Origin: Ostreococcus lucimarinus
Taxonomy: Eukaryota
NCBI GenBank assembly: GCA_000092065.1
Contig: CP000584.1
Reading direction: 5' to 3' (one strand)
Length of the DNA: 64,000 bases
The position numbers were made by a program, and so were the translations under genes. The notes below the pieces were generated by a model that worked only from the letters and a program-made list of their open reading frames with translations, made no database searches and was not told the DNA's origin. Below are positions 18,456 through 36,400 of the stretch, piece after piece (the stretch's first letter is position 1; each line of letters starts with the position of its first letter).

Positions 18456-21400
18456 ATGTACATCGAGGAAGTATGCATCGATGGCTTCAAGTCGTACGCC
18501 AAACGCACCGTCGTTCCGGGATTTGATCCGTTATTCAACGCGATCACCGGGTTGAACGGCTCGGGCAAGTCGAACATCTTGGATTCGATTTGTTTCGTGC
18601 TCGGGATTTCGAATCTCACGCACGTACGTCCGCGACGACGCGTCGGTGCTCGCGCACGTTGGATGGAGTTTCGTGCGCTCGGCGGCCGCGATGGATGACG
18701 ACGCGCGCGACGCGTGGGGGGGGAGATGATGACGACGCGCGCGGGGGGAACGAGCGCGCGCGAGGCGCGGTCGACGCGCGAGGGGATCGATCGCTGACGC
18801 GCGGCTCGATGCGGTAGCGATGAGAGCAGACGCGCGTAAAATTGATTGACTGACGATGTGCGCGCGTTCGGTCGAACGCAGGTGCGCGCGGCGAGCTTGC
18901 AAGAGCTCGTGTATAAGCAAGGCCAAGCGGGCGTCACCAAGGCGTCGGTGAGCGTGACGTTTAACAACGAGGATCGGACGCGGTCACCGGTCGGATACGA
19001 GCATTGCGATCGCATCACGGTGACGAGACAGATCGTGATTGGTGGGAAGAATAAGTACATGATCAATGGCGCGACGGCGCAGCCGACGCGGGTGCAGAAT
19101 TTGTTTCACTCGGTGCAGTTAAACGTGAACAATCCGCACTTTTTAATCATGCAAGGACGAATCACAAAGGTGTTGAACATGAAACCGCCGGAGATTTTGG
19201 GGATGCTCGAAGAGGCGGCGGGAACGCGGATGTACGAAAACAAAAAGGAAGGCGCGCTGAAGACGCTGGATAAGAAGCAGACCAAGGTTGATGAGATTGA
19301 CAGGTTGCTCGAGGAGGAAATCTTGCCGACGATTGAAAAGCTACGCAAAGAACGTGGCGACTACATGAAGTGGGCGGCGGCGAACGATAATCTCGAGCGC
19401 TTGCGCCGATTCTGCATCGCGTACGATTTCGTGATGGCGCAAGAAGCGGTCGAGAAGGCAAACGCGGGAACATCGAGCATCGTCGAAAAGATTGAAGAGC
19501 ACAAGAGCGCCATCGACGACGCCAATCGCGAGCAAACGGAGCTCGAGCTCCACGCGCAACGTTTGCAAACCGAAAAGGAAGAGCGCATGGGTTCAGAGAT
19601 GAAAGACCTGGTCGTTCGTACCGACACGATGTCCAAGGAGTTGGTGAAGGAAACCACCGCCTTGACGAACAAGCAAAACGAAGTGAAGAGCGAGCAAAAA
19701 GCCAAGGACAAGTTGTTGAAGGATGCTTCGGAAATGGAAGCCGCCGAGTCCAAGCGCGCCGAAAAAGTTGCTGCGCTCGAAGCCGAAGCCGCCGCCGAGC
19801 AAGCGTCGCTCGATGAGAAAGTGGCCGCCGCAGACATGGCTGAGCGCACGCTCCAAGGCGTGCAATCTGGCAAGGGAACGGGCGCAGACAAATCGTTGCA
19901 AGCGCAACTCGCCGACGCCGTCGCCGCGCAATCCTCCTGCGATGCTGAAGTGAAGTCTGCGGCACTCAAAATCAAGCACGTCGAGAAAGAGCTCGCGGTC
20001 GCGCAAAAGTCACTGAGTACGAAGCAAAAGGAAGGCGACAAGCTCACGAAGGAACTTCAATCCGCCGAGTCCGCGGTGGAGACGGCGCGCGCCAATCTCG
20101 CCAACTTTGGTGGATGCACGAGTGACAAGGCGGCCGAGCTCGAAGCGGCGTGCGACAAGGCAAACTTGGAAGTTCAAGAATTACAGCAAGAAGTTGATGT
20201 ATTGAACTCTAAGCTTGGTGACTGCGACTTTCAATTCCGCGATCCCGAGGCGAAGTTTGACCGCAAACGCGTTAAAGGCGTCGTCGCTAAGCTCATGCAA
20301 GTGAAGGACCCTGCCTCGGTCACCGCGCTCGAAGTCGTCGCCGGAGGTAAGCTGCACCAAGTTGTCGTTGATACAGACGTCACCGGTAAAGCACTTTTGG
20401 CTAAGGGTCAACTCAAGAAGCGTGTGACGATAATTCCGTTGAACAAAATCGACAGCCGAACGGCTACGGATCGTCAAATTGCCGCGGCGTCGAGCGTAAG
20501 CAAGGGCGAAGCCTCTCTCGCTCTCAGCCTCGTGACGTATGACGACGACGTGCAAAACGTGATGAAGTATGTTTTTGGTAAGGCTTTCGTCTGCAAAGAT
20601 CAGACCACGGCAAAGGCTGTCGCGTATGACAGAGATGTCATGTTGAACTGCGTCACCGTCGAGGGCGACATGTTCAACCCCAGCGGTGTCATCAGTGGAG
20701 GCTCTCGTAACACCGGCAGCGCGGTGCTGACTAAGCTTCACGCGTTGTACAAGGCTGAAGATGCATTGGCCAAAGCTAAGACTCGCGCCGAGTCCGCGTT
20801 GGAAACCGCCAAGGTGGCAGCCAAGGAGGCGAAAGAGGCGCAAAAGTTGGAAGACGAGTTGGATCGTCACGAACACGCGCTCGGTTTGTTGAAGGAGAAA
20901 GTCAGCGGTTCAGAAGTGCATCAACTCGCCGAAAAAGTTCGCAAATTCGAACAAGATCTAGCTGACGCCAAAAACACGACGGAGGAGGCCAAGGCGAAGA
21001 AGGTTGAGGCTGCACAGACAGCTGCGGCGCTTGAGAAAGAAATCAAGAGCTTTGAAAAGGAGCGCGATTCACGTTTGAAAGAAGCTGAAAAGGCTTTGAA
21101 AGAGGCGAGAAACGCAGTCACCAAAGCTCGAGCGCAAATTAAAGAGAAAGAAGAGTTTGTCACTAGCGCGCGGATCGAGAAAGAAGCTGCGGTTTCGGAA
21201 CGCGCGGCGCTCGATGAGCAAATCAACGAACGCGCCGCCGCCGTCGCGGAGTTGCGAGCCGAAGTCGAGACTATGCAAGCGGCCGTGTCGGAGAAGCAAC
21301 GTGAATACGACGTCGTCGCAGCTGAGCTTGAAGACCGGCGCGCGCGTGTCGCTGCGTGCGATGTCGAAATCTCTAAGCTGCTTAAGCGCAAGGAGAAACT

Positions 21401-22328
21401 CGAAGCCGCAGCGCAGGAACACGGGTTGGAAATGAAGAAGCTCGAGTATCAAATCACGCGCCATGAAAACGAAGCGAAGGATGCCGAGGCGCATCTCGAT
21501 AATCTTAAGAAAGAACATCAGTGGGTCGCGAGCGAGAGCGCGCTGTTTGGTCAGTCCGGAGGTGATTATGATTTCAAGAAGCGTTCCCCTTCGCAAGCGC
21601 AAGCGGAACTTGCAGAGTGCGAAGAAGCGCAGGCGACGCTCGGGAAGCGCGTGAACAAGAAGGTCATCGCCATGTTTGATAAGGCTGAAGCCGAGTTCAA
21701 AGAATTGCAAGAAAAGCGTCGCATCGTGTTGAACGATAGATCGAAGATTCAAAAGGTGATCACCGAGTTGGACGAGAAGAAGCGTGAGGCTTTGCAGCTG
21801 ACTTGGGAAAAGGTCACCAAGGACTTTGGTTCCATCTTTTCCACTTTGCTCCCAGGGACGAGCGCCAAGCTCCAACCTCCCGAAGGATGCACCGTGATGG
21901 ATGGTTTGGAAGTCAAGGTCGCTTTCGGGGAAGTTTGGAAGGAATCGCTCACCGAACTTTCGGGCGGTCAGCGATCGTTGCTCGCGTTGTCTTTAATTCT
22001 CGCGCTTTTGCTCTTCAAGCCTGCGCCGATTTACATTTTGGACGAGGTCGATGCTGCGCTGGATCTTTCGCACACGCAAAATATCGGACGCATGATCAAG
22101 CAGCACTTCCCGTTCTCCCAATTCCTCGTCGTTTCGCTGAAGGAAGGCATGTTCAACAACGCAAATGTTATTTTCCGCACCAAGTTTGTGGATGGCTTAT
22201 CGACTGTGACGCGATCGGTGCCCGCTTTGAAGGACAAGGAAGACAATACTCGTCCAGATGCGCCAAACGCACTCGCAGCGGCCGCGGCAAAACGTCGCGC
22301 GCCGACCAAACAGGGCAAAGAAAATTAA
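18456..22328 (+). CDS. SMC2: SMC2 (condensin subunit); join(18456..18623,18882..22328)
   Basis: Exon 1 encodes [56 protein letters not shown], which is the SMC2 N-terminus with the Walker A motif. Exon 2 continues [23 protein letters not shown] and runs through the coiled coils, hinge and C-terminal signature and Walker B ([36 protein letters not shown]). A 258-nt intron with GTACGT donor and acgcag acceptor lies between them. Confidence 0.92.
18624..18881 (+). other. Intron (258 nt) in SMC2
   Basis: GTACGT donor, CTGAC branch candidates and an ACGCAG acceptor. It is needed to join the conserved SMC2 N-terminal exon to the main ORF in frame. Confidence 0.8.
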
Positions 22329-22905
22329 TCTCGCGTAGACGCTCCGTGTAAGAATATGAATCCTTTTTCGTTTACGAGTCACACTAAAAATAGAATGCAG
22401 GTCAAGGAGCTTCGAGCCATGAAAAAAGTTCCAACGCAGTTCCTCCCTCTATTTGAGGTGGGTGAATCGTTCGAAGATGCCCCTGAGAAGAACGTCGCCG
22501 TCCTCCAAGACGAACCGGTGGCGCGCGAGGCTATTTTCATCACTGAAACGCCAGAGGAGAGCGCGGAGTATGATTTCGACTACGATCGATTCCATCCAAA
22601 CGCGCGAGCAGCTTTGTGTGCACTAAAGTTTGCGCTTAAACATCCACCATGCGCACCGCATTCTGACAAGCTCATCTCCGAGCTACATTACCTGAAACTC
22701 ACGGTTTCTGCGGGTAATCGAAGAGTCGCGCCGAACGAGTTAGCCGCGCAGCCGCGCGCCATCAGACGCAACGATGAATTATCCGCCGAGGAGAGTCGTA
22801 AAGTACTCGAGCTCGAGCGCACGCTTGAAGTACTGAGGCTCCGAGTGGCCCAACTAGCGTCCATGGAAGATGATCAAAGAATTAGCGATTGACTTACTAC
22901 AATGG

Positions 22906-24825
22906 TTATGCTTTCGCCGTCGAGGTTGAAGCGCCAGACAAATCTTGAATGAGTTGTCCAGCGTTCGCGAGCGAGGCGCGCATGCCTTCTAAACCTTCCG
23001 CGCGTTTGTGTAGCGCACTTTCCTGGCATGCGCGAATAAGCACGGCGAATGTGATTTCGGTGGGCATAAGTCCATCGATGCGTTGCATATCGTCGAGCAC
23101 GCTGAGTCCTCGCGTGACTTCGCCGCTTCGCACGTGCGCCCCGATGAGAGCATTGTACACCGCAGCGTTCCGTGGAACATCCCAATAGTTGCGCATTTTC
23201 TCCATCACGGCCTCCGCTTCGAGGTCTCGACCTTGGCATCCCAAGCAGTGAATGTACGCTCCGCACATGACGGTGTGCGGGATGATTCGGTTGCGCAACA
23301 TCTCCGTCCAAACGCCGTCCGCCGCGATGTACTCTCCGCTTCGCTCGGCAGCAGATATGAGCTGCGTGAAAGTGTACGAGTCTGGCTGGATTTTCGAGCG
23401 TTTCATCTCGTCATACACTTCAGTGCATCCTTCCCAGTCCCCGTACCTCGCGTATCCGCCCAAGAGCGCGTTGAAGGTGTACGTCGTGACGATCATCGTT
23501 GAGTTGCGCATAGCGTCGAAAACTTCGTTCGCGTGCGCCATGTCGCCGGCACGTCCTGCCATGGTGATGATGGCATGCATCAACGTCGCGTCCGGACGCA
23601 CGTCGTACTTTTTAATACGTTTTGCGACCGCGTTACCTTCGATCCAGCGTCGACAATTATCGAACGCCGTCAGCGTCAACGAAAACGCTAAGCTCGTCGG
23701 TTGAACTCCAGGCTCACGCGCCATCTCGTTGAGTACGGCCAACGCCTCGTCCGGCTTCGCCTCATCTCTCAACGCCGTGAGCACGGCTGTGTAAGTGTAC
23801 AAATTTCTCGGTTTGCCCTTGTCGCCCATGTCCCGAAACACTTGATACGCCCCGCTCCAATCACTCACGCGATTGAGTGCGGCGATCACCGCAGACGCGA
23901 TCTCGTTACAAATCAAGCTCTCATCATTCTCCGCGATACCGCGCTGCCACAAGTTTTGCACCGTTCGCGTTTGCGTCAGCGTCTTCGCCGCGCTGGCGAG
24001 CGACACGTACGTAAACTCATTCGGCGCGTACCGCCCTTGCTTGCGCGACATCCACAAATACAGCGCGTGCGCGCGATCGAAGCTCCCACGCTCACCGAGC
24101 TCCTTAATGGCAAAGTTAAGCGTCGACGTGGTGAATTTAAACTTCCCACCCTCGGGATTCACCGCGCTCGCGACGACGTCCCACGCGATGCGTTCGCCCT
24201 GCGCCGGCGCGTCGATAGATTCCATCGCCCGCACGATCCGTTCCCCCGCGCGCAACGGCGGCCTCCCGCTTCCACTCGCCGCGCCATCCCCGCGTCCACC
24301 GCCTCTCGTCTCCCTTTTTTGCGCGTGCGTCGGTTCCCTCTTACTCGCGTTCACGTGCCTCTGCAGCGCCCCGTGCGACGACTTCGTCACCCTCAGATCC
24401 ACCTCCGTCGTCGCCTTCCCTCGTCCTCCCTCCCTCGCGCGCGCGTCGTTCACCGTCCGTCCTCGCGCCGGCGCGTACCTCTGCCCTCGACGCGTCCCCG
24501 TCCCTCGCGCTCGCGCGTCGCTCGCGCGTCGCGTCGTCCCGACCCCGCCGCCGCGCGTCTCGTCTCGCGTCTCCTCCCCCACCCCGCGCGCGCTCGTCCC
24601 GTCGTCCCGTCGCATCGCGCGCGCGTCCCGCGTCGTCGCGTTCGCTCGCGCGCGTCCATCGCGGTCGTCGCGCGTCGCGTCGTCGTCGCGCGTCCCGTCG
24701 GTGCCGCCGCCGGCGCGCGCGCGCGCGCGCGCGATTCGTCGCGCGCCGTCGCGTCGCGCCGTCGTCGGCGCCCGCGCGACGCGCGATGGCGCGACGCGCG
24801 TCGCCGTCGTCGCCGCCGGCGCCAT
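22906..24825 (-). CDS. Pentatricopeptide-repeat (PPR) protein with basic N-terminal presequence
   Basis: 639-aa ORF with multiple 35-aa PPR-like repeats (for example YTYTAVLTALRDEAKPDEALAVLNEM and TYTFNALLGGYARYGDWEGCTEVYDEMKRSKIQPDSYTFTQLISAAERSG). The N-terminal 150 aa are Arg/Ala/Thr-rich, consistent with a targeting peptide plus low complexity. Confidence 0.8.
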   Translation of the reverse strand: MAPAATTATRVAPSRVARAPTTARRDGARRIARARARAGGGTDGTRDDDATRDDRDGRARANATTRDARAMRRDDGTSARGVGEETRDETRGGGVGTTRRASDARARGTGTRRGQRYAPARGRTVNDARAREGGRGKATTEVDLRVTKSSHGALQRHVNASKREPTHAQKRETRGGGRGDGAASGSGRPPLRAGERIVRAMESIDAPAQGERIAWDVVASAVNPEGGKFKFTTSTLNFAIKELGERGSFDRAHALYLWMSRKQGRYAPNEFTYVSLASAAKTLTQTRTVQNLWQRGIAENDESLICNEIASAVIAALNRVSDWSGAYQVFRDMGDKGKPRNLYTYTAVLTALRDEAKPDEALAVLNEMAREPGVQPTSLAFSLTLTAFDNCRRWIEGNAVAKRIKKYDVRPDATLMHAIITMAGRAGDMAHANEVFDAMRNSTMIVTTYTFNALLGGYARYGDWEGCTEVYDEMKRSKIQPDSYTFTQLISAAERSGEYIAADGVWTEMLRNRIIPHTVMCGAYIHCLGCQGRDLEAEAVMEKMRNYWDVPRNAAVYNALIGAHVRSGEVTRGLSVLDDMQRIDGLMPTEITFAVLIRACQESALHKRAEGLEGMRASLANAGQLIQDLSGASTSTAKA

Positions 24826-25106
24826 GACGTCGGCGTCGCGGCGTCGCGCGCGCGCGTCCGCGGCGACGCGCGCGCGCGCGATTCGGATAGCGCGAGTCCC
24901 CTGACCGTTGAGTCGTGATCCGTCGGTATGCGCAAACAGTCACACACGTGTCGGCGACCGACCGCGGCTCTGTTGACATTTTTTATAGAGCGTCATTGGA
25001 GGTATTCTAGTACCTCAGCGTTCATATAAGGACGGTGCGTATACCTATTTACCAGAGAAATGGCAAAGGCCCTTTCGTCAGCACGCGTCAGCACCACGCG
25101 GCAGCA

Positions 25107-25378
25107 CGCGTTTGGTGTTACGCACGCACTGGCACTGATTGCCGCGACGCGCGCGCGTCGCCACTCGCGCGCGCGATCGACCTCGTTCGACGCGACGACG
25201 CGACGGTGAAAGACGCGCGCGACGCGCGAGACCGGCGACGCGCGAAACCGGCGACGCGATCCGCGCGCGGCGTGAGAACGTTCCGCGAACGACGCGTGCG
25301 AACTTTCGACGCGTGCGAACGACGCGAGCGAACTTTCGACGCGTGAGAGTCGCGAGCGAGGACGAAAGCGCGCGGGAA
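25107..25378. repeat. Left arm of a near-identical inverted repeat (paired with 32167..32392)
   Basis: Its reverse complement is found almost base-for-base at 32167..32392. The differences are a 26-nt and a roughly 10-nt indel. It ends about 10 bp before the ATG of paralog A (25386). Confidence 0.85.
25289..25348. repeat. Tandem duplication of a 30-nt unit inside the left inverted-repeat arm
   Basis: cgaacgacgcgtgcgaactttcgacgcgtg followed by cgaacgacgcgagcgaactttcgacgcgtg. The right arm has only about 1.1 copies. Confidence 0.7.
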
Positions 25379-25385: not shown

Positions 25386-28300
25386 ATGACGTCGTCTTCG
25401 AAGGGCTCGCGCGATGGTGGCGTCGCGCGGCGCGTCGCGGTGTTCGCCGCGACGGCGATCGTGGCGTACGCGGTGGCGGGCGTGGCGACGACCAGAGAGG
25501 GACTGGCGCGAGTGGTGCTCTCGACGACGAAGACGAACGATGGACGCGCGCCGATGTGGGCGAAGGAAGGACACGCGCCGCTGAAGGCGTTCTTCAACGA
25601 TGCGATGGCTGACGCGCCGACGGGATTGACGCGCGACGAGCGCCGCGCTGCGCGGGCGCTGCGCGCCGCGCGCAAAGCGGCGCGCGCCGGCAACGGGCAA
25701 TCGGAGACGACGTTCACTCTTTCAAAGTCGTGGAAGTTGCATCGCTTGGCCAAGCTCGGGATCACGGAGGTATTGACGGATGATGACGAAGAGCCGAACG
25801 CGCTCTCCGATGTGTCGTTCACGAGCGCGCAGACCAAGGGCGCGCAGACGGCGTTTGATTTCTCGGAGGAGGAAGCAGAAGCCGCACCACAAAATCAAAC
25901 TGAAGATTTTCTCGCGGACAATTACGACGCTGAAGAAAAGATCGAGACTAGCGTTGATTCGGTGATTACCTCGTCGCCGGATGCGGTGTTTGCGGCACAG
26001 TTTGGGAATCACACATGTGTACAACAGTGCGCCGACGACGCCGACGTCGCGCAAATCATCGGCGGTTCCGGCTGCACTGCGCTTCAAGCGAACGACAACG
26101 TTTTCAAGTGCTTGAACGAAAAGTGTTCATGCGAGGAAGCCGTGGCTTTACACGAAACTTTGCTCTACGTTTGTGACGCGAATGAGGTTGGGAAGAACTT
26201 TTCATTCGTTCGACTCAACCAATTCTACGTCGACACTTTGGATGACGCGATCGACGAGTGCCAGGTCACCGATCTTCTTGACTCAGTCGTTTCTTCTCAG
26301 AACACGTACTGCGACAGTAACGAAGATCAAGACTCGACTATCTCGAATGTCACCGCCGCTGCGCTGGGTCAAGGATGCCACCGCGGCGGCGACCGCCCAA
26401 AGGTGGCCAATTGCATAGTCCACAAGTACTACTTTGCACGCTGCGACTACTGGGCCGGTTGCAGACGCGGATGCAACTCCTGGGATTATCCCATCCGTTG
26501 GAAGCATTGCGGCTGGTGCTGTCATCGATGTGTAAACTTCCCGTGCGGGGTGCATTGCCGTTGTAGATGTCGGCGCTGGCGCTGTCGCTGCAGCTGCCAC
26601 ACGAGATGGTGCCGTCGTTGCTGGCATTTACCAACGTATCGACCGAGGTGCCGCAAGGATAGATATTATCGGCAAAATAAATGCGATATTTGCTCGCCCG
26701 GCTACCGCGTAACACGCAATGGACGATGTCAACTTTACGGATGGATTCAAGCCATAGTCGACGGCATCAACGCCGTGAAGCAAGGGATCAAATACATCAA
26801 AAATGTCATCCCGAACACAATTGACAACATTAAGAACATGTTCACGAACGTCAAGACGCAAGCGAATACGGCGGTTACGAAACTGACAGAGCTCGCCGAT
26901 CAAATCGCGCAGAAAGTGACGGATCTCGCCGATGAAGTGGTTTCCAGTGTCATCTTCATCAAGCCGGCGACTTTCTTGCAAGCAATCGAGAGCGCCCTCC
27001 TTTCGTGTGACAACGCTCAATCCGCGCTCGGCTCCACCAAAATCAGCGCACATGAAGCAACGTCCCTTGGATTGCTCGATCCGGCGAATTCACACGTGCT
27101 TGAGGAAAAGCTTGGTGATATTTTTGGCAAATCCCGTAGCGGAGTTTCTCCCATCCAAGAATGGCGGTCTGATGATACGTCTTCGCTCGGAGTCGGACAG
27201 TGTGTGGCTCATTGCGGCGCTGGGATGTGTCTGCCCACGACAATACCGGCAATGACATACGAAACGCCTGATCACGGTATGCCCTTTCCGGATTCTATCC
27301 ATTTGGTCAAATATAAGCCGGACGCGGTGATCGTCAACGTGGCGGCGAACCCCGTCTCAGTATGCGTCAAGATGACGGAATTCAGCATCCCTACGACCGC
27401 CGCCGAATCAATCGTCAATGCTCTGGTTGATCAAATCAAACCAATCCTACTCGCTGGCGTCGATGAAGTCAAACAGTGGGGGAAGAACGCCGCAAAAGGC
27501 ATGAAAAACGCAGCCGTCGCCGTCGAAGACGGCGCAAACGACATGGCTGGATTTGTCCAAGGGATCCCGGATAAGCTCAACAATCTGGTAGGTCGACGTC
27601 GGTTACTCGCCGATGCCACGCCGTCAGACCAAGATCTCATCGACGTCTCGTTCGCGCTCGGTCGTCTGATGGCTCAGCAAAACAGGCTTCGTGAAAAAAC
27701 CGAAGCAGACGTCAGGCTCTCCTTGGATGAGCTCCGAGCGAGGCTCCAAGCGCTTCCGCACTTTTCGCACGCTCATCCGACGCACAAGGGCGCGGCAAAT
27801 CACGCAACGGCCAATCTTGGTGGTAATTTTCTCAGTGACGCGAGCGACGGACTCGTGAACGCGATGAAGCTCGCCTTCCAAGACATGAAGAACATGAAGA
27901 TGATTGCTCGCTCGACACTGGTCTTGGATTTGAACGTCGAGTTCAACACCGATGCGACTGCCTATCGTTTCGACGATCTCTTGAACAACGGTGAAGGGTA
28001 CACGATGATGATCGATCAAAGCATCCCGATCGGTCTGGGGTTCACCATCGCCATCACCGGTCGGCTTGATGTTAAGATGCCTTACTACTTCATCGCAGAA
28101 AGTGCCGGTAACTTTGCCTACAACGTGGCGTCGAACGATTTCTGGGTCGAGTTCGGCTCCGACGAAGGTAGCGGCGTGCTGAGACTTAACGACAACCCGC
28201 AGGTGACTATCACGCCGTCTGGCACTGGGCAAAGCTCGGTATCGTTTAAGGTATCGACTACTCTTCGTGCGAGTGATTTCAAGGTTTCCGTGTGCTTTGG

Positions 28301-28751
28301 CGACATCATTTGCTCTGGCATCGAGGCGCAGTTCTTCCAAAGTGTCAGCGCTGGCGCGGACAGTCTATCGGCTACGACGGATGAGGAATGTTTCAATGGC
28401 GCGACGGAATTCAAAGCCATGTTCGCCGACACCTTCACCGGGTATTACGACGAAAACAGCGGCGAGTGCCGACTGCGCCAACGCGGCAGCATCAACGCCG
28501 CCGGTCAATACGTCGAAATCCCCAAACCCGATGTTAACGTTGCCTTCACCACCGTCGTGCTCGGTGACAAGGATTGTGTCAGTCCCGTCTCGCTCTACGA
28601 ATACTCCGCCCGCGAGTCTTGGCTCTCGGACGCACAGATGGCTACTTTAACCAGCAAAACGTGCGCGGCGCCGGCTGACGGCGACGGCGACTTTGTCACG
28701 TCGTCGTGTTCGGCATGCGACACCGCCCGCGCGCAGGGCTGCCACTCATAG
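25386..28751 (+). CDS. Large cysteine-rich secreted or signal-anchored protein, paralog A (unknown family)
   Basis: 1121-aa ORF with an N-terminal hydrophobic anchor (VAVFAATAIVAYAVAGVATT) and an acidic linker. A Cys-rich domain follows (CADDADVAQIIGGSGC...KCSCEEAVALHETLLYVCDA), then a helical Asn/Asp/Ile-rich middle and a C-terminal beta-like domain with conserved Cys, and PYYFIAESAGNF and YVEIPKP motifs. It is paralogous to the minus-strand gene at 28890..32150. It contains one anomalous Cys/Arg/Trp segment (see findings). Confidence 0.75.
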   Translation: MTSSSKGSRDGGVARRVAVFAATAIVAYAVAGVATTREGLARVVLSTTKTNDGRAPMWAKEGHAPLKAFFNDAMADAPTGLTRDERRAARALRAARKAARAGNGQSETTFTLSKSWKLHRLAKLGITEVLTDDDEEPNALSDVSFTSAQTKGAQTAFDFSEEEAEAAPQNQTEDFLADNYDAEEKIETSVDSVITSSPDAVFAAQFGNHTCVQQCADDADVAQIIGGSGCTALQANDNVFKCLNEKCSCEEAVALHETLLYVCDANEVGKNFSFVRLNQFYVDTLDDAIDECQVTDLLDSVVSSQNTYCDSNEDQDSTISNVTAAALGQGCHRGGDRPKVANCIVHKYYFARCDYWAGCRRGCNSWDYPIRWKHCGWCCHRCVNFPCGVHCRCRCRRWRCRCSCHTRWCRRCWHLPTYRPRCRKDRYYRQNKCDICSPGYRVTRNGRCQLYGWIQAIVDGINAVKQGIKYIKNVIPNTIDNIKNMFTNVKTQANTAVTKLTELADQIAQKVTDLADEVVSSVIFIKPATFLQAIESALLSCDNAQSALGSTKISAHEATSLGLLDPANSHVLEEKLGDIFGKSRSGVSPIQEWRSDDTSSLGVGQCVAHCGAGMCLPTTIPAMTYETPDHGMPFPDSIHLVKYKPDAVIVNVAANPVSVCVKMTEFSIPTTAAESIVNALVDQIKPILLAGVDEVKQWGKNAAKGMKNAAVAVEDGANDMAGFVQGIPDKLNNLVGRRRLLADATPSDQDLIDVSFALGRLMAQQNRLREKTEADVRLSLDELRARLQALPHFSHAHPTHKGAANHATANLGGNFLSDASDGLVNAMKLAFQDMKNMKMIARSTLVLDLNVEFNTDATAYRFDDLLNNGEGYTMMIDQSIPIGLGFTIAITGRLDVKMPYYFIAESAGNFAYNVASNDFWVEFGSDEGSGVLRLNDNPQVTITPSGTGQSSVSFKVSTTLRASDFKVSVCFGDIICSGIEAQFFQSVSAGADSLSATTDEECFNGATEFKAMFADTFTGYYDENSGECRLRQRGSINAAGQYVEIPKPDVNVAFTTVVLGDKDCVSPVSLYEYSARESWLSDAQMATLTSKTCAAPADGDGDFVTSSCSACDTARAQGCHS

Positions 28752-28889
28752 CGTTGTGACGCACAATTTTCACACGCGCAAAGATCTCGATTGCGCTTTT
28801 CATTTCGTCTATCCTACGGTGTAATGAAATATTCAGTAGTGCACACTTTTGATTAAAACGTGAAAATTGGCCCTGCGCGCACGAAACGG

Positions 28890-31800
28890 CTAGGCGTAGA
28901 TCGGGCAGTCGGTCGGACACGCGTCGACAGCGGCGCCACAATCCTCCACAGGATCTGTGCTGGCAGCGCACGACGTCGAATGGCTGGATCTATACTGTGC
29001 GCGGCTCGTCATGTCCAAGAGCGACAGAGGCTGGACGCACTCGGTGTCGCCGCGTACTTCGGTGATAATATCGGTAGTCACGAACGGTTTGGGATACTCG
29101 ACGTACAAGCCGGCGCCGACGACGTTGGCACTTGCGCTGCATTGGTTTGAAGTTGTCGGGTAGGACGTGAGGAATTCGCCAAAGACGGGAGACAAACCGG
29201 TGCGTCCGTTGTAACAAGAGGAGTCCGTGGACGCGCCGACCCCGTCGTTTAGAACGGAATCCGCGCCGAATTGAATCCCTTGTTTGATTGTGACTTCGGG
29301 GCCGATGCAGATGATGCCGCCCCAGCAGAGTTTGATGTGGAATTCTTCGAGCGCTGCCACGACGCCGACCTTGAGGCTCGAGGAAATCGTGCCGTCGATC
29401 GTCGGCGTGATGTCCAAGCTTGCCGAAGACTTAGGCGCGACGGTGGCGACGCCGTCGGAGATGCTCACCGTGTAACCAACATTTTTACCCTTGATCTTGT
29501 ACCCGAGCTTTCCGCTGCCTTCTGCGAGCAAGAAATATGGGAGTTGAACTTTCGCGACGCCTCCGACGACCAAAACGAATCCAGTCGGGCCGATGGGTGT
29601 GATCTTGAACAATTCCTGATTGGCTTGGCCGTCAAGGAGATCACCTTCTTGAAAGAGAGCTCCTTTGGCGTCGAATTCCAATGTTTGCTCAAAATCGACG
29701 TCGAAAGAAACGCCAGTGGAGATCGTATTCAAGGCGCCTCGAAGAACTGATATGATACCGTCCTCGATGACGCTGAAGTCGAGCTTGAATCCGCCGAGGT
29801 GGGCGATGTCTCGGCGCGCTCTAGATTTGGGATCCGCCATAGGTTTCATGTTGTGCATGTGCGGATCATTCGAAACCAAGTTATGAATTTCGGCAATAGC
29901 GCTCAACGCCTTCTTCTGCATCAAGTTGACGCGTTGGATGTACTCCTCGACGATGTGTCCAAGCACCAGCGCTCGTTCGTGTTTGGTTAGTTGCTCGAAT
30001 TCTTGCGTGTCACCAGACAAGAGCTTACGTCCAAAGCCCGGGACGTTAATGTTTGCGACGGTCGATTTCACCGACGAAAAGATGTCCGTGAGCGATTCGC
30101 CGATTTCGTTCACGAAGTCGGTGATTCCATCGGCCCAACCCGTGATGGCTTTGACTGCGTCATCGACGATCGGCTCGACAACTTTGACGAACTCAAGTGC
30201 GACGTCGTTCAACACACTCATGTCCAACCCAAAATGCGTTACCCCGGCGCATGCTTTGATGTTGCCATCGACAAATGCCTTGACGTAATCGGGTTGGAAA
30301 CGCTCAAACCGAGGCTCGTCCGGGACAGAGCTCGTTTTGGTGAGTGAGAAAACGCCATCTGAGTAATCTGGGTGCTTTTTTAGGATGTCCTTGACGTCGA
30401 GCTGGTAGCACAGCGCGCCTGCGCAAAGATTGTGACTGCACGAACCTCCGAGTGGAGCGCTTTCAGAAGGTGCGGCGTAGTGCGATGCGATTTCCACACC
30501 GTATACTGCCTCCAACACGCGCTTGCGCACGTCGTGGTGCCGCCTCGACTTCACTGTTTTTCGATCGGCGCCCAAAGACGCGCTGTCGTCGTTGTTGCAT
30601 CCCGCAGCCTGACTGAGTCCGTTCATGAGGGCGTTGGCATTCGGCACAACGGCTGACACTTCGTCATAAACCAAATCGGCGAGTTTTGAGCCGAGATCTG
30701 CGAGGTCACCCGCGAGAGACGCGATCGCGTTCCCGATGCCGTGTATGTCTTCGATGAGATCATTCTTGAAATCGTTTATGGTATCCAAACCATCGTCGAT
30801 CTTGTTCTTCAAAGAGTCCAGCTCTGACGCCCAGTCGTCCCAGAATGCTCCGAGTGCAGCTACGCGAAGCTTAGCTCCGAGCTCAGGGTCCGACGTATCG
30901 ATCGACGCTTTGAACATCTCTTCAGCTTGCTTCAAGTCCTCATCCGTCATGTTGAAGTCTTTCTTCAAAGCTTCAGTATCCTCGACGCACGCCCCGGAGC
31001 TGTCCATCTTGAAATATTGATCGCACGAGTCGCACTCACGCGTCTCGCTGTTCATCAACCAGCCGTACTCGCACTCGATGCACTCACCTTTGCGGGTTCC
31101 TTCGTACGCGCACGGCATGGAGTATGCTTCATGCGTGCTCGTGCAAATCCTACGTGTCCAAGTGCAGCGAGAACACGTATCACCATCGCACGTATCGCAG
31201 GTGTATGCCGGGCAGCTCCATTTCTCTGTCGTGCTGCCGTGTACACGAAGAATACCCGTGCGCGACGAGTTGGCGCCGCACATTGGTGCCTCATATGAGC
31301 AAGTAGAGATGACGTTAGCTTGAGCGACGCAGTGCGCCGGCGCCGGATCATCCGCTGGCAACGAGCAGGGCGCGGCCTTAATATTGCCAGAGTCGTCCGT
31401 GTCTCGGATAGGGGTCAGAATGCTGAGCACACTGTGAGCCTTTCCACAGTGCGCTTCGACCGCCGAGACGGTTTCGTCCAGAAAATTGGCGTATTCGGGG
31501 CCGTTAAACTTTCCGTCCGCCTTCATCGGCGCGTCGCAAATGTAAAACAACGCCTCGATGAGTTGATACGATTCGTGACAACCGCACGCGTCGTGAATGC
31601 ACGAGATGAGCTCGTCATTGTCACTACTCACGGCGTGATCGCACGTCGACTCGACGTCAATGTCGCCGCCGCACGTCGCCGCGCACGGGAACGTCAACTT
31701 TAAATCGGAAAATATCCTACCCGGCGACGTCGCATCGTACGAATTCACCTGATTGTACATAATATCCGTTTCCGTATCGTCGGACGGATCGCCCACGACG

Positions 31801-32150
31801 TTCCCAGAGCCCTCGGTTGAGATTACCAGCGCGTCCGCGTCGACGTTCGCGCTCGCCGTCGTCCCCAAGCTCGGCGCGCTCGGCGTCGACCACGCCGTCG
31901 TCTCCGGCCTCGCCGCTGTCGTCGTCGTTGGAATCCATCGTCCCACGCTCATCTTCCACGTCGTTTCCCCGCCGTCGAGCGCGAGCGCGACGCCCACGGT
32001 CACGCCCAGCACGCACGCGAGCGCGTCCAATCCCCAGCCGCGTCCGCGTCCTCGCGTCCGCGTCTCCCCCAACAACGGCGTGGACGCGTCCGCGCCCGAA
32101 AATCCGAGGCGCGCTCGAGATCCGAGACCCGCGCCCGAATACCGACCCAT
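28890..32150 (-). CDS. Large cysteine-rich secreted or signal-anchored protein, paralog B (unknown family)
   Basis: 1086-aa ORF with the same architecture as paralog A. It has an N-terminal anchor (LDALACVLGVTVGVALAL), a Cys-rich domain (CGGDIDVESTC...CGCHESYQLIEALFYICDA), a helical middle and a C-terminal domain (LPYFLLAEGSGKLGY, YVEYPKP, multiple conserved Cys). It is convergent with A, and their stops are 139 bp apart. Confidence 0.75.
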   Translation of the reverse strand: MGRYSGAGLGSRARLGFSGADASTPLLGETRTRGRGRGWGLDALACVLGVTVGVALALDGGETTWKMSVGRWIPTTTTAARPETTAWSTPSAPSLGTTASANVDADALVISTEGSGNVVGDPSDDTETDIMYNQVNSYDATSPGRIFSDLKLTFPCAATCGGDIDVESTCDHAVSSDNDELISCIHDACGCHESYQLIEALFYICDAPMKADGKFNGPEYANFLDETVSAVEAHCGKAHSVLSILTPIRDTDDSGNIKAAPCSLPADDPAPAHCVAQANVISTCSYEAPMCGANSSRTGILRVHGSTTEKWSCPAYTCDTCDGDTCSRCTWTRRICTSTHEAYSMPCAYEGTRKGECIECEYGWLMNSETRECDSCDQYFKMDSSGACVEDTEALKKDFNMTDEDLKQAEEMFKASIDTSDPELGAKLRVAALGAFWDDWASELDSLKNKIDDGLDTINDFKNDLIEDIHGIGNAIASLAGDLADLGSKLADLVYDEVSAVVPNANALMNGLSQAAGCNNDDSASLGADRKTVKSRRHHDVRKRVLEAVYGVEIASHYAAPSESAPLGGSCSHNLCAGALCYQLDVKDILKKHPDYSDGVFSLTKTSSVPDEPRFERFQPDYVKAFVDGNIKACAGVTHFGLDMSVLNDVALEFVKVVEPIVDDAVKAITGWADGITDFVNEIGESLTDIFSSVKSTVANINVPGFGRKLLSGDTQEFEQLTKHERALVLGHIVEEYIQRVNLMQKKALSAIAEIHNLVSNDPHMHNMKPMADPKSRARRDIAHLGGFKLDFSVIEDGIISVLRGALNTISTGVSFDVDFEQTLEFDAKGALFQEGDLLDGQANQELFKITPIGPTGFVLVVGGVAKVQLPYFLLAEGSGKLGYKIKGKNVGYTVSISDGVATVAPKSSASLDITPTIDGTISSSLKVGVVAALEEFHIKLCWGGIICIGPEVTIKQGIQFGADSVLNDGVGASTDSSCYNGRTGLSPVFGEFLTSYPTTSNQCSASANVVGAGLYVEYPKPFVTTDIITEVRGDTECVQPLSLLDMTSRAQYRSSHSTSCAASTDPVEDCGAAVDACPTDCPIYA

Positions 32151-32166: not shown

Positions 32167-32392
32167 TTCCCGCGCGCTTTCGTCCTCGCTCGCGTCGTTC
32201 GCACGCGTCGAAAGTTCGCACGCGTCGTTCGCGGAACGTTCTCACGCCGCGCGCGGATCGCGTCGCCGGTTTCGCGCGTCGCCGGTCGCGCGCGTCTTTC
32301 ACCGTCGCGTCGTCGCGTCGAACGAGGTCGATCGCGCGCGCGAGTGGCGACGCGCGCGCGCGTCGCGGCAATCGAGCGTAACACCAAACGCG
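32167..32392. repeat. Right arm of the inverted repeat (pairs with 25107..25378)
   Basis: It is the reverse complement of the left arm. This is confirmed because the + ORF at 31817 and the minus ORF at 24993 encode the same peptide string (LASFARVESSHASFAERSHAARGSRRRFRASPV) across the two arms. The arm abuts the ATG of paralog B (32150). Confidence 0.85.
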
Positions 32393-32545
32393 CGGTCGGT
32401 CGCCGAAATCGTAAAGCACGTCGCACTGCGTGCGCATACCGACGGATCACGACTCAACGGTCCGGGGACTCGACGCCGACGCGAAAACGACCGTTGGCGT
32501 CGCGGCGACGCGCGCGGCGACGCGACACACGACGACGCGCGCGCG

Positions 32546-35500
32546 ATGCGCGCGAATCGCACGCCGACGACGATGCGAAAACGCGCGTTCGGCGCCGAGG
32601 TGACGAACTCTCCCGACGCGCGCGACGCGCGCGATGGAGGTCGAACGACGACGCCGAACGACGCGAAGACGCGCGCGATGTCGACGCCGAGAGGGACGGG
32701 CGCGGTGACGCCGCGAGCGACGCTGACGCCGCGAGCGAGCGCGCTGCTGCGAGATCAGCGACAGTTGGCGTCGCCGCTTCGAGCGGCGATATCGCCGACG
32801 CGACCGAGCTCGATGGTGAAGTCGAGCGTGAAGTCGAGCGAGAGCGCGACGAAGCGGGACGCGGCGCGGTTGCGCGAGCTGAATTCGATGCTGTTGAAAC
32901 AGTTGTCGACGGCGCGGTCGGCGGCGGCGGAGGCGGAGAGCGCGAGGGAGACACTCGGGGAGGCGATGGCGCGGGAGGTGGCGAAGTCGAAGACGCTGGC
33001 GAAGGATGTGGAGGATAAGGCGGAGGCGCTGCGCGCGGCGGCGAAGCGAGCGAAGAAGGAAAGTAAGGATTCGGCGGAGGACGTCAAGGCGGAGGCGGAG
33101 CGATTGCGAACGTTGAACGCGAGGCTTATGAAGGAGGTTTCCATCGCGAGAGCGGTGGTGAAGGCTCGAGAGCACGAGGAGGCGACTTTGAAGGCAATCG
33201 CGGGGAAATCGGACGAGCGCGCCAACGCGCTCGAGGCTGAGATTGACGCCAAGCAACGGACGCTCGAAAGAGTTCAACTCGCGCTAGTTTCGGCGACAGA
33301 GCGAGCTGCGGATAGCTTGCGAGCAAATATGAAGGTGGAGAAGCTCGCCGAGACGAACGCGGTGTTGATGGGCGAGTTGGCTGCGTTGCGCGAATCCGCG
33401 GCGAGCGATTCCCAGGCGCTGCGCGCGCAAATCGCCGCCAAATCGGATGCCTTGATCGAGGCCAAGGCCGATCTCGCGGCCGCGGAGGACGAGGTCAATG
33501 CGCTGAGCGGCGCGAAATCCGACGTTGATAACCTTCGTTCTCTGAACGCGACGCTGATGCAGCAAATAAAGTCTCTTCGTTTCAAGGCTGACGAGGCGCT
33601 CGACGTCTCTCGCGCGCTCGAGGGCAAGGAACGCGAATTGGCCAAGGTGTGCGATGATCTGAAGGTTGCTGAAGACGCCAAGAGCGCGGCTGAGGACGAC
33701 GTCATGAAGTTGCGACAACTCAACGTGACGTTGCTTCAACAAATCTCCGCGCTTAAGGAGAATTCAGAGGTGGACGGAGCGGCGCTCGAAGCCAAGCAGT
33801 CGGAACTCGAGGCGGCGCAAATGGCGCTCGAACTCGTCGAAGAGGAACAAGAGCGCACGCAGAACGACGTCACGAAGCTTCGCGAATTGAACACCGTCAT
33901 CATGTCTCAAGTCAAAACGCTGAAGAAGTCGTCCTTGGATGATCGAGCAGCGTTCAAGGCGGACATGGATGCCAAGAATGCCGAGTTGTCGCGCGCGCGT
34001 GTCGAACTCGCGCGACTCGAACAGTCCAACGGCACGTCCGAAAGTGCTCTCGAAAAGGCTCGCATGAGACAAGCGGCGTTGGACGGCGAAGTCACGACTT
34101 TGAAAAAGATTGCTGAAGAGAACATGGCGACGAACGCGCATCTCACCGGCCAAATCGAAGCAAAACAGCTCGAACTCGCCGATGTCAAGGAATCTCTCGC
34201 GACGGCCGAGGCCAAGGCTGCGAAACTCGAAGCGGCAGAATATGACGTATCCAAGCTTCGCGAGCTGAACTCTGTCCTCATCGCGCAAGTGAAGACGTTG
34301 CGATCCGTCGAAGCGGAGAATGCGTCTCTCACCGCGGCCTTGCGCTCGCGCTCAGCTGAGCTCGAAAAAGCGCAGCTTCAACTCGCTGCCGCCGAGCGTG
34401 CCAAGGCTACAGGTGAAAAGGTTTCGGAAAGTGAAATCGCCAACTTGCGCGAGCTCAACACGCGCATCATCCAGCGCATGGGCGAGGTAAAGGAGGAGCA
34501 GGAAAAGAAGTTCCAACAACTCATCGACACGAAGACGCTTGAGCTTGCGAGTGTCAAGGCGGAGCTGGCAGAGGCGACGAAGGAGCTCGCCATCGGTCGC
34601 AAAGATGCGATGGCGCTCGAAAAATCGCTCGAAAAGTTGAGAACGATGAATGCAGAGTTGAACGGGTCGATCAAGGCGTTGGAAGCGGAGATTGAGGGCG
34701 AGAAGAAAGCGACGCTTGAGATGCGCCAGGCGATTCTCGACGCGCAGGCAGAGTGCGCTAGTCTCAAAGGGCGTTTGTCGGCGAAAGACGACGAACTCGA
34801 ATCTGCATGGTCTGCGCTTATGTGTGTGAACGCCGATTTGAAACACGCTTTGCACGACGCCACGGGTATGCGTGCTCTGGCGGAGAAGCGCCACGGAGAG
34901 CTCGAAGAGGCGAACGTCAACGTCGATCGCTTGCGTGAGCTGAATCACATGATGATTGAACGTCTGCACAACGCCAAGAAGGCTGCGCTCGAAGCGGAGG
35001 CATTGAACGCTGAATTTGCCGCCGCGCGTACTCAAGCCGAAGTTACGGTTCGTTCAGAAGAGGCGAAGGTTGCCGCGCTTGAACAAAAGCTCAAGGAGAA
35101 GGACGAGGAGTACGCGACGACGACGCTCGCGCTGCGCGCCGAGATGGAATCCGGAAACTCAGCCTCCGCGCAACGTTTGGCCAATCTCCAAGCGCAAATG
35201 CATTCCCAGACCCACTCGCTTGAGCGCCAACTCGAGTACGCCAACTTGGACCTGCAAAAGGTTCAACGATCGGAGGCGGCGCACATTGAAGACCAACGGC
35301 GAAGCGCCGAAGAAATCGAATCTCTCGTCGCGCAACTCGAGCTCACGGAGAGCGACGCGAAGAAGGACGCCAACGCGATGAACAAACATATCTTCGCCCT
35401 CCAATCCAAGGTAGCCGCGCACGAAGCATCCAATAAAGCCTTGACGAAGAAGTTGAACTCGTCCAAAGCTGAGATCAAAGCGCTCGAGCAAAAGCTCGCC

Positions 35501-36400
35501 GACGCGCAAAGCACGTCGAGCAAGAGATGGACTGATTTGGCTGCGGCATCGCGAGATTTACAAGAAGCGTTTACAGCCAACAAAGTTAAAGATACCATCA
35601 TTGCAACCATGCGCACAGAACTCAAGGAGCTCACGAACACGGCTGAGTACTTCACCCGACTCGCGCGAGAGCACGGCGAAGAGGCGAAAGACTTCAGCGT
35701 CAAGTTATCGCAAGCGGAGGGTCAAGTCGTCTCGCAAGAGAAACGAATCGGACACCTCTGCGCGTCGTTGGAAGAAACCGAGATCGCGCGAAACGAGTTG
35801 TCCCAGAAGGTTGTCGCGCTCGAGCGCAAGGGTGGCGTCGCAGAGATGACCATTCGCGCCGCTGCTGAGCACCTGTATAAAGCGAACGAACGCGCGCGGT
35901 CTTTGGAGCACCAACTCAAATCGGAACGCGCTGATTTTGAGCGAACGCAAGCGGCGTTGACTGAAACGCTGAACGCTGCCGAACGTTCTATGGAAGCCAA
36001 CATGCAAATCATTTGCGACCTCGAAGCCAAGTACCAAGAAACTTTGCAGCTCTTACTCGTCGAGCGCGAGCACAGTGCCGAAGTGCGCGACGAGATGCGC
36101 AAGGAACTTCAATTCGTCAACGAAGAGCTCGACGCCACGTCTGCGGATCTCGAAATCATGATTGAACGGAATAACTCTGGCATCTTGCTCAAAGTCGCGG
36201 ACAACGCGATGTGCAAGCTTGTGTTCTCCGCCGCGCCAAAGATTTCTGCGCGCGGCGTCAAAGCCGTCATTCGTCTCGGCATGCTCGGCGGTATCGCCGC
36301 GTTGATTGGTCAAACCGTGCGTCAACTCAAGACTAAGGTGGTCGACAAAGCCACCTCGCAAACGCCGCGCGCGTCTTTCCGCTTCGCCTTCCGAGGTTGA
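32546..36400 (+). CDS. Tail-anchored long coiled-coil protein (golgin-like) with about 10 internal tandem repeats
   Basis: The frame is open from 31817, but upstream of about 32440 it crosses the inverted repeat, so the start is set at the first ATG beyond it (32546; others lie at 32573 and 32678). There are about 1280 aa of heptad-rich sequence. A motif L-R-E/T/S-L-N-x-x-L/I-x-x-Q/E recurs every 50 to 60 aa (LRELNSMLLKQ, LRTLNARLMKE, LRSLNATLMQQ, LRQLNVTLLQQ, LRELNTVIMSQ, LRELNSVLIAQ, LRELNTRIIQR, LRTMNAELNGS, LRELNHMMIER). There is a C-terminal hydrophobic anchor (AVIRLGMLGGIAALIGQTV). Confidence 0.75.
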   Translation: MRANRTPTTMRKRAFGAEVTNSPDARDARDGGRTTTPNDAKTRAMSTPRGTGAVTPRATLTPRASALLRDQRQLASPLRAAISPTRPSSMVKSSVKSSESATKRDAARLRELNSMLLKQLSTARSAAAEAESARETLGEAMAREVAKSKTLAKDVEDKAEALRAAAKRAKKESKDSAEDVKAEAERLRTLNARLMKEVSIARAVVKAREHEEATLKAIAGKSDERANALEAEIDAKQRTLERVQLALVSATERAADSLRANMKVEKLAETNAVLMGELAALRESAASDSQALRAQIAAKSDALIEAKADLAAAEDEVNALSGAKSDVDNLRSLNATLMQQIKSLRFKADEALDVSRALEGKERELAKVCDDLKVAEDAKSAAEDDVMKLRQLNVTLLQQISALKENSEVDGAALEAKQSELEAAQMALELVEEEQERTQNDVTKLRELNTVIMSQVKTLKKSSLDDRAAFKADMDAKNAELSRARVELARLEQSNGTSESALEKARMRQAALDGEVTTLKKIAEENMATNAHLTGQIEAKQLELADVKESLATAEAKAAKLEAAEYDVSKLRELNSVLIAQVKTLRSVEAENASLTAALRSRSAELEKAQLQLAAAERAKATGEKVSESEIANLRELNTRIIQRMGEVKEEQEKKFQQLIDTKTLELASVKAELAEATKELAIGRKDAMALEKSLEKLRTMNAELNGSIKALEAEIEGEKKATLEMRQAILDAQAECASLKGRLSAKDDELESAWSALMCVNADLKHALHDATGMRALAEKRHGELEEANVNVDRLRELNHMMIERLHNAKKAALEAEALNAEFAAARTQAEVTVRSEEAKVAALEQKLKEKDEEYATTTLALRAEMESGNSASAQRLANLQAQMHSQTHSLERQLEYANLDLQKVQRSEAAHIEDQRRSAEEIESLVAQLELTESDAKKDANAMNKHIFALQSKVAAHEASNKALTKKLNSSKAEIKALEQKLADAQSTSSKRWTDLAAASRDLQEAFTANKVKDTIIATMRTELKELTNTAEYFTRLAREHGEEAKDFSVKLSQAEGQVVSQEKRIGHLCASLEETEIARNELSQKVVALERKGGVAEMTIRAAAEHLYKANERARSLEHQLKSERADFERTQAALTETLNAAERSMEANMQIICDLEAKYQETLQLLLVEREHSAEVRDEMRKELQFVNEELDATSADLEIMIERNNSGILLKVADNAMCKLVFSAAPKISARGVKAVIRLGMLGGIAALIGQTVRQLKTKVVDKATSQTPRASFRFAFRG

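Follow-up and report, generated by a model that had tools for sequence, protein, structure and literature searches.

A conserved pair of paralogous cysteine-rich genes with near-identical promoters in Ostreococcus lucimarinus: candidates for a surface recognition complex

In a 64,000-nt stretch of Ostreococcus lucimarinus DNA (contig CP000584.1, assembly GCA_000092065.1; hereafter the window), positions 25386 to 32150 hold two adjacent genes, here called p1 and p2, that encode large cysteine-rich proteins resembling no family recognised so far. What are these proteins, and why do two such genes stand together behind almost identical upstream sequences? Our analysis tentatively favours, at a little under an even chance, a reading in which p1 and p2 are co-expressed and form a heteromeric surface recognition complex under diversifying selection.

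Gene p1 (25386..28751, + strand) is an open reading frame (ORF) for 1121 amino acids (aa) and gene p2 (28890..32150, − strand) one for 1086 aa. Their stop codons are separated by a convergent intergenic spacer of 138 nt (28752..28889), and one Logan contig of p1 stops 52 nt past the stop codon. The similarity of the two proteins is far above chance (BLASTP, E=5e-53, 23% identity over 987 aligned residues), and they are true paralogs. An earlier note on this DNA, made from the letters alone, had described a paralogous pair arranged tail-to-tail under duplicated promoters; pairing and arrangement are both borne out by these data, and the promoter duplication proved real, as described below. The p1 protein exactly matches a record from strain CCE9901 listed as a 'predicted protein' (XP_001417142.1 / ABO95435.1 / UniProt A4RVI0), on a 930.7-kb chromosome. 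For p2, the public NCBI/JGI model (P0106) comprises only the C-terminal 742 aa and, because it begins at Met345, lacks both the membrane anchor and the Cys-rich domain. The full-length p2 sequence is kept end to end in other strains (86–99%), and the reference annotation therefore appears to be N-terminally truncated.

Word-indexed homologue searches returned only near-identical sequences; it was an exhaustive HMMER search of 1.84e9 (1.84 billion) representative proteins, at a cut-off of E<=1e-3, that exposed a family of 37 clusters. Both p1 and p2 match the family profile at E<=1e-188 and carry its core motifs. The conserved core takes in the C-terminal beta domain as well as the helical middle, and its motifs include A-x-L-G loops, Y-x-M-P-W-P (degenerate in p1 and p2), G-R-R-L-L, F-x2-G-D-L-L, P-Y-F-F-x-A, L-C-x4-V-C-x-G-P and G-x-G-x-Y-x-Q-x-P-K. 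The named members are all from Ostreococcus (two O. tauri 'unnamed products' and one transcript from Ostreococcus sp. RCC789), and other members lie in compact green-algal nuclear DNA beside PsaH, EMC6, cullin and eIF2A. The family is small and restricted to Ostreococcus and related green picoalgae. No close relative was found among IMG/VR viral contigs, where distant relatives would have been beyond the reach of the search, and a recent viral origin was dropped on this ground.

The earlier note had been unable to place the proteins in a family, and profile and fold searches likewise gave no confident match. Pfam returned nothing above threshold for p1, p2 and 49 family members; its weak matches, to Baculo_PEP_C, laminin II, apolipophorin and similar families, all involved one Asn/Ile/Asp-rich helix. 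Matches to Baculo_PEP_C (PF04513, the C-terminal domain of the baculovirus polyhedron envelope protein) occurred in 17 of the 49 members (best E 2.7e-5), scored 16–18 bits (p1 and p2, 16–17) against a gathering cut-off of 38 bits, and covered the first long low-complexity helix only. NCBIfam gave no match for p1 or p2. Among PHROGs, both proteins weakly matched the helical regions of several phage tape-measure families, which is helical noise; we treat these matches and those to PF04513 as compositional similarity. Sequence profiles from PDB returned only coiled-coil noise (keratin, Sec2, HA2, spike HR1 and F0; E 0.0004–0.7), and Foldseek against PDB and BFVD gave no confident fold match. No Pfam match was found to the SUN (Sad1/UNC) domain, whose proteins likewise combine type II topology with a coiled coil and a C-terminal beta sandwich, nor was a SUN structure among the fold hits listed. 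A literature search by accession and topic found nothing published on the two proteins. The family is thus real, uncharacterised and lineage-restricted, with no detectable sequence or fold relatives.

Both proteins share one architecture. Each has a single hydrophobic segment, the predicted signal-anchor, near its N terminus: aa 17–36 of p1 (25434..25493, +; Kyte-Doolittle 2.08, the sole segment above threshold) follows a basic tail of 16 aa, and aa 40–58 of p2 (31977..32033, −; 2.11) follows an Arg-rich tail of 39 aa. The same holds for every full-length family member, with one N-terminal hydrophobic segment behind an Arg-rich tail and none at the C terminus. An acidic stretch comes next (22 Asp and Glu residues in aa 101–200 of p1, 20 in p2), and then a Cys-rich N-terminal ectodomain, delimited in p1 by Cys positions and alignment (aa 211–448; 26016..26729, +) and containing CxxC-x2-G-[YW] repeats in p2 (aa 156–388; 30987..31685, −). 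There are 45 Cys in p1 and 39 in p2, and about 26 Cys positions are invariant in an alignment of six p1- or p2-type proteins. The earlier note had described this order of anchor, acidic linker and Cys-rich domain and had quoted shared motifs, and both the order and the motifs are confirmed: the translations contain the pairs LLYVCDA / LFYICDA and CSCEE / CGCHE in the Cys-rich region, PYYFIAESAGNF / LPYFLLAEGSGKLGY and YVEIPKP / YVEYPKP, and two helical strings. A Cys/Arg/Trp-rich insert is common to the p1-type proteins and an LGAFWDDW motif to the p2-types. The p1-type-specific segment, aa 353–448 (26442–26729), is nearly all Cys, Arg and Trp, for example CRCRCRRWRCRCSCHTRWCRRCW; P0008 and the O. 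tauri protein have a segment of the same kind, and P0007 a more weakly conserved one.

Long helices separated by conserved loops make up the middle of each protein. Between two of these helices p1 has a dibasic loop, G-R-R-R-L-L (aa 736–741; 27591..27608, +), which is found family-wide and in which R738, L740 and L741 are invariant or nearly so. The same conserved motif occurs in p2 as G-R-K-L-L (aa 707–711; 30018..30032, −), within a low-confidence loop between helices H644-699 and H723-760 of the AlphaFold model. Motifs of the form [A/S]-x-L-G recur in the inter-helix loops of both proteins (in p2, for example, at aa 524–527, 565–568 and 783–786); three hardly vary within the family, and the motifs often read L-G-G or L-G-A. 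Their putative role may be that of a hinge or a protease site, and the G-R-R-L-L and A-x-L-G loops may both be processing sites. The invariant Cys together with the conserved loops point to a defined fold.

The most conserved part of the family is the C-terminal domain, which is predicted to be all-beta (p1, ~aa 838–1100, 27897..28685, +, placed by alignment with p2; p2, aa 811–1063, 28962..29720, −). AlphaFold run with five sequences gave a predicted local distance difference test (pLDDT) of 30; with 49 diverse homologues, the p2 model had a mean pLDDT of 50.5 and was usable for the C-terminal domain only, where values reached 70–87 (aa ~790–1063). In this part of the model, long helices lead into a stack of very long antiparallel strands. 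The strands are 20–33 residues long and alternate polar and hydrophobic residues, as in LDITPTIDGTISSSLKVGV of p2 and VTITPSGTGQSSVSFKVST of p1, a pattern that would suit the amphipathic, Ser/Thr-rich insertion hairpin of aerolysin-type toxins and, equally, a beta sandwich.

The N-terminal tails differ between partners. Acidic di-leucine signals, [DE]xxxL[LI], are read by adaptor complexes. A motif of this kind, D-A-S-T-P-L-L, is found in the p2 tail (aa 21–27; 32070..32090, −), with counterparts ERTPLL in the O. tauri p2-type protein (RCC1115 model) and DAATPLL in P0004. Elsewhere in the family the tails carry E-T-T-S-L-L (one member, L009b, of the L009 pair described below) and E-T-D-A-L-L or E-T-R-A-L-V (third clade), and ETTALL is among the di-leucine-like motifs of other clades. 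None was found in the p1-type proteins or in the partner of L009b. An ExxxLL/TPLL sorting-type motif thus appears to be present in one partner per pair, suggesting that one subunit directs the trafficking of both. The presence of an acidic di-leucine-type motif in the p2 tail also supports a cytosolic N-tail and with it a type II topology. It should be noted that the two annotations of the O. tauri p2-type gene (L004:9987-10100, chromosome 11), which has a short intron after exon 1, differ in their first exon: the RCC1115 model OUS46449.1 begins MGASRWRREGDERTPLL and retains the TPLL motif, and the RCC4221 model CEF99728.1 begins MATRGRRAHAAV, using another first exon that lacks it.

Is the pairing itself conserved? 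A neighbour-joining tree places p1 in a clade with a 1120-aa O. tauri protein, P0007 and P0008, and p2 in the sister clade with O. tauri XP_022839997.1 and P0004. A tail-to-tail pair is present in three strains: the window, L001 (86% protein identity) and L011, a syntenic 368-kb contig with ~99% DNA identity to the window. On chromosome 11 of O. tauri, a p1-type and a p2-type gene are also adjacent, here head-to-head and 296 nt apart, among genes other than those of the window. Another picoeukaryote, L009 (L009:6157-12325), likewise has a head-to-head pair, its members drawn from sister subclades; they encode 1006 aa (−) and 774 aa (+), with a called 168-aa ORF between them, and the gene caller recorded no family hit for either. 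Members of a third clade (O. tauri XP_003082227.2, RCC789) are singletons; in four of that clade (P0032, P0145, P0025 and P0020; 1195–1319 aa) the last profile module (~799–866) occurs three times at the C terminus. The comparison indicates that the two-gene unit is old and has been kept, and that its orientation has not. Because the unit and its co-regulation are conserved while orientation varies, this is the main basis on which we propose a heteromer.

Co-regulation appears to be achieved differently in the two species. The O. lucimarinus genes are each preceded by one arm of an inverted repeat of about 260–480 nt, the ~260 nt before each ATG being 98–99% identical. The aligned blocks are 25221-25331/32186-32296 at 99% and 25148-25229/32279-32360 at 98%, and additional blocks carry the repeat leftwards to 24893 and rightwards to 32472. 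Only these two copies occur in the window, with none expected by chance. The left arm (24893..25378) is the promoter and 5' leader of p1, shared with a divergent PPR gene, and holds a tandem 30-mer at 25285-25344; the right arm (32167..32472) is that of p2, shared with a divergent coiled-coil gene (first in-frame ATG, 32546). Together the arms occupy almost the entire divergent intergenic regions. In O. tauri, the head-to-head pair would instead be served by one bidirectional promoter (L004:9770-9925), which contains the 20-mer AACACCCTCGGCGAACATCC three times in tandem and, farther downstream, once more in degenerate form; a palindrome like the O. lucimarinus repeat was not found within it. 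A search for a shared promoter in a third species (L005/L007) found only short common AT-rich motifs plus GCGAGGACCCTA.

Comparison between genomes reveals that the arms change together. Those of L011 align over 533 nt with 492 positions identical, and both contain an insert of ~150 nt that is in neither window arm. At seven further positions the arms are alike within a genome and different between the window and L011. This homogenisation within genomes indicates gene conversion between the inverted repeats, and the promoter duplication is best described, from these alignments, as an inverted repeat kept alike by concerted evolution. The coding regions behind the homogenised arms remain 23% identical. 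In L001, both contig ends carry one and the same 30-mer, the kind of ending that a k=31 assembly leaves at a repeat boundary; it differs at two sites from the window copy pair, in line with concerted evolution of the repeat.

The arms have other features of their own. An AT-richer insert of ~130 nt specific to CCE9901 lies in the left arm (24976-25105); L002 and L011 have a different sequence at this site, which L011 carries in both arms, and the promoter region is thus structurally polymorphic. The 560 nt before p1 hold five copies of ACGCGT, a hexamer similar to the MluI cell-cycle box, and the region before p2 holds two (spans 25083-25344 and 32203-32225), compared to 1.0/kb across the window. 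E2F-like GCGSSAAA sites are found at 25240, at 25372 and, as a repeat copy, at 32270. All are candidate cell-cycle elements in CpG-rich surroundings and only a lead. DNA identity between the window and L011 is 97.4% to the left of the left arm (18900-24940; synonymous difference, pS, 0.08 in the SMC gene), 98.97% across the stretch with p1 and p2, and 99.45% from there rightwards to 42012 (pS 0.01). As these steps coincide with both repeat arms, they suggest recombination breakpoints or mosaic ancestry there.

We used the syntenic strain L011 to count nonsynonymous (Nd) and synonymous (Sd) differences in the pair, with neighbouring genes as the comparison. There were 29 replacement changes and 1 silent change in p1 (pN/pS 8.6) and 15 and 2 in p2 (2.3). 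The corresponding values were 9 and 61 for SMC (0.04), 8 and 13 for the coiled-coil gene (0.19), 4 and 5 for ABCG (0.27) and 38 and 17 for the PPR gene (0.74). Pooled, the pair has 44 replacement and 3 silent changes, compared to 61:96 for neighbouring genes (Fisher test, odds ratio 23, p=5.5e-12). For comparison, the genome-wide ratio of nonsynonymous to synonymous diversity (piN/piS) in O. tauri is ~0.2 (PMC5498103). The replacements are scattered single-nucleotide substitutions, not products of misalignment. In p1, 17 of 28 replacements fall in a hot spot in the Cys/Arg/Trp segment (aa 333–447) and are mostly losses or changes of Arg or Lys; in p2 there is a cluster in the beta domain (aa 851–1026).

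Polymorphism over four to five strains gave the same picture, with nonsynonymous/synonymous counts of 29/1 for p1 and 16/3 for p2. Against a neutral synonymous fraction of 23%, the excess is significant for p1 (binomial p=0.004) and for both genes pooled (p=0.006), and a McDonald-Kreitman table for p1 gave p=0.0004. Relative to the more distant strain L001, p1 has a gene-wide ratio of nonsynonymous to synonymous substitution rates (dN/dS) of 0.58 and p2 one of 0.73, and there are 100-codon windows in which the ratio exceeds 1. Within a clade, O. tauri and O. lucimarinus proteins are 28–34% identical, compared to a proteome average of 73.8% (PMC5371798). The best reading of these comparisons is that p1 and p2 evolve unusually fast under diversifying selection, as would be seen in an arms race with viruses or over mating.

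What kind of protein would evolve in this way? In kind, p1 and p2 resemble other fast-evolving, Cys-rich, membrane-anchored surface proteins of protists, such as the Giardia variant-specific surface proteins (VSPs) and ciliate immobilisation antigens. As in these and in furin-like CxxC proteins, the ectodomain is rich in disulfides and includes CxxC-x2-G-[YFW] units (CIECEYGW...CDSCDQYF in p2, CDICSPGY in p1), and p1 and p2 are likewise membrane-anchored, fast-evolving and taxonomically restricted. However, p1 and p2 have only one or two CxxC units, counted by eye, and match no Pfam profile of this kind even at E=1 (Furin-like, GCC2_GCC3 and VSP). The algal anchor is N-terminal rather than C-terminal or made of glycosylphosphatidylinositol, the genes form a fixed set of two rather than a large variant repertoire, and the helices and beta domain, which are most of the protein, have no counterpart. 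The predicted topology also recalls paramyxovirus HN/H/G, reovirus sigma-1-like fibres and similar attachment glycoproteins of the type II stalk-and-head kind. These share a cytosolic N-tail and a single signal-anchor and likewise have a helical stalk, an exposed C-terminal beta-rich head and fast evolution driven by recognition, the algal side of the likeness being predicted. No sequence or fold similarity to them was found; the algal proteins add a Cys-rich domain and are host-encoded, and the model shows no propeller in their head.

Several other explanations were weighed against the same data. That the ORFs are decaying or non-functional (mis-annotated, unexpressed and drifting neutrally) is close to refuted. 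High dN/dS values, a truncated public model of p2, and the lack of literature and of direct transcript evidence would be expected of such ORFs, but uninterrupted frames of 1086–1125 codons are intact in all five related sequences examined, homologous pairs exist in other species, the Cys and core motifs are invariant across proteins that are ~20% identical, and gene-wide dN/dS relative to L001 is below 1 in both genes. The sole apparent split ORF, which had looked like a frameshifted p1 allele in L002, is due to a run of Ns at a scaffold gap. An effector that attacks membranes, in which the C-terminal beta domain would be cleaved at the dibasic loop and insert into the membrane of a virus, competitor or grazer, is quite improbable. 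Its appeal lies in the modelled strands, since aerolysin and ETX-MTX2 toxins likewise have a domain of ~270 aa built from very long antiparallel amphipathic strands, and in weak fold hits to Cry51Aa1, NetB, Sip, aerolysin, the perforin-2 pore and outer-membrane barrels. Yet those hits have probabilities of at most 0.02 and template-modelling scores of at most 0.14, and Foldseek found no similarity to the elongated aerolysin fold in three dimensions. No aerolysin, ETX_MTX2 or MACPF profile matched, the first two being without a match at E<=1 for p1 and p2 and at E<=0.1 for the 49 members. Alternation is equally expected of any beta sandwich, and the 6–9 conserved disulfide Cys in which the algal domain is rich would hinder large refolding.

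Two further explanations are unlikely, to a similar degree, though clearly better placed than the effector. The pair may be a structural or processing pair of an endomembrane compartment (vacuole, endosome or Golgi lumen), routed there by the di-leucine motif of the N-tail, with fast change reflecting mostly weak constraint on a loose lumenal domain. The [DE]xxxL[LI] motif is a classic textbook signal for adaptor protein-dependent delivery to endosome or tonoplast and is conserved in three clades; Golgi-resident proteins are also type II, much of the ectodomain is modelled at low confidence, and gene-wide dN/dS relative to L001 does not exceed 1. However, weak constraint cannot produce an N:S ratio of 29:1 when the neutral expectation is ~3.3:1, the ~26 invariant Cys and conserved loops imply a defined fold, and strictly kept pairing and co-regulation argue for a specific function. 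Alternatively, p1 and p2 could form a sex-specific surface complex for gamete recognition or fusion that is not expressed during vegetative culture. Sexual selection or conflict would drive its evolution, and the long helices and C-terminal beta domain would serve adhesion or the merging of membranes. Reproductive proteins typically have ectodomains that evolve rapidly under positive selection, and no MMETSP culture transcript was present among the p1- and p2-type members read. Sex in Ostreococcus, its cycle never observed, is inferred from population genomics (PMC5498103). The long, heptad-like, Asn/Ile/Asp-rich helices recall class I viral fusion proteins (HA2, coronavirus S2 HR1, paramyxovirus F), to whose coiled coils, and to that of F0, they give weak profile matches (E 0.04–0.7), and the conserved dibasic loop could be a processing site. 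These matches are not significant, though, and are probably explained by coiled-coil composition typical of such helices. The anchor is at the opposite end from that of a class I protein; neither a C-terminal transmembrane anchor nor a fusion peptide was found, the residues after G-R-R-L-L being polar. There is no Pfam or fold match to HAP2/GCS1, which is type I, or to any other known fusogen, and at a GC content of ~0.6 the locus is unlike the low-GC candidate mating-type region of chromosome 2 (PMC5498103).

The recognition complex that we favour would be built as follows. Each protein would be type II, with a short Arg-rich cytosolic N-tail, a signal-anchor helix and a disulfide-rich domain of ~1000 aa outside the cell or in a lumen, ordered as acidic linker, Cys-rich domain, long helices with A-x-L-G and G-R-R-L-L loops, and C-terminal all-beta domain. 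One p1-type and one p2-type chain would form a heteromeric stalk-and-head complex at the cell surface, in which a helical stalk on a disulfide-rich base carries a beta-rich head, either exposed there or cycling through endosomes; the p2-type chain would contribute the di-leucine-type trafficking signal. Equal dosage would come, in O. tauri, from the bidirectional promoter that both genes share and, in O. lucimarinus, from one inverted-repeat promoter copy per gene, kept alike by gene conversion. The complex would act at an interface of conflict or recognition, most likely in the attachment or evasion of prasinoviruses, with gamete recognition as the alternative; a position at such an interface would explain the fast replacement of exposed residues.

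A number of points weigh against this reading. The p2 model is moderately confident at best, which makes 'stalk and head' a sketch, and the di-leucine motif suits vacuolar or endosomal residence as much as recycling at the surface. The nonsynonymous excess rests on four to five sequences that form essentially two haplotype groups, p2 alone is not significantly beyond the neutral N:S ratio (p=0.32), and mutation bias may contribute since many p1 changes are at CpG-containing Arg codons. As the O. tauri pair is non-syntenic, the identity of 28–34% could partly reflect old paralogy. The literature search found no expression, localisation or interaction data for any member, nor did the p1- and p2-type cluster members read include an MMETSP transcript.

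Strain-specific giant viruses control Ostreococcus and its relatives, which rank among the most abundant eukaryotes of the phytoplankton. With large ectodomains, co-regulation, deep pairing and a signal of selection that is among the clearest local ones obtainable from a handful of strains, the pair is a concrete candidate for a virus or mating interface. The prasinovirus receptor is unknown, and the viruses are strain-specific (PMC5371798). The most specific form of the proposal, that a p1/p2 heterodimer is the cell-surface molecule by which prasinoviruses recognise Ostreococcus, a decoy or guard against them, or the species-specific gamete recognition or fusion complex of Mamiellophyceae, combining a fold without known relatives, stoichiometry enforced by promoter conversion and specificity tuned by recurrent positive selection, is distinctly unlikely, somewhat more so than the endomembrane and gamete explanations above. 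What is new here is the conserved pairing, the homogenisation of the promoters and a locally strong signal of positive selection. The locus also offers a natural example of promoters homogenised between inverted repeats while the coding sequences stay 23% identical, it corrects a truncated public gene model, and O. tauri is genetically tractable.

The surrounding window is compact, intron-poor eukaryotic nuclear DNA, and tRNA and Rfam scans of it found nothing. Neighbouring genes include SMC, PPR, RHD3/Sey1, C2-domain, ABCG, Polo kinase and RTEL-type helicase genes. The gene adjoining p2 (32546-36400, +), which has its upstream region in common with p2, encodes ~1280 aa that are almost all coiled coil and has no Pfam match. 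On the other side, the PPR protein (22906-24825, −) differs from its L011 counterpart at 5.2% of residues, with a pN/pS of 0.74 that is far above the values for SMC, ABCG and the coiled-coil gene, and its N-terminal third is of Arg/Asp/Thr-rich low complexity.

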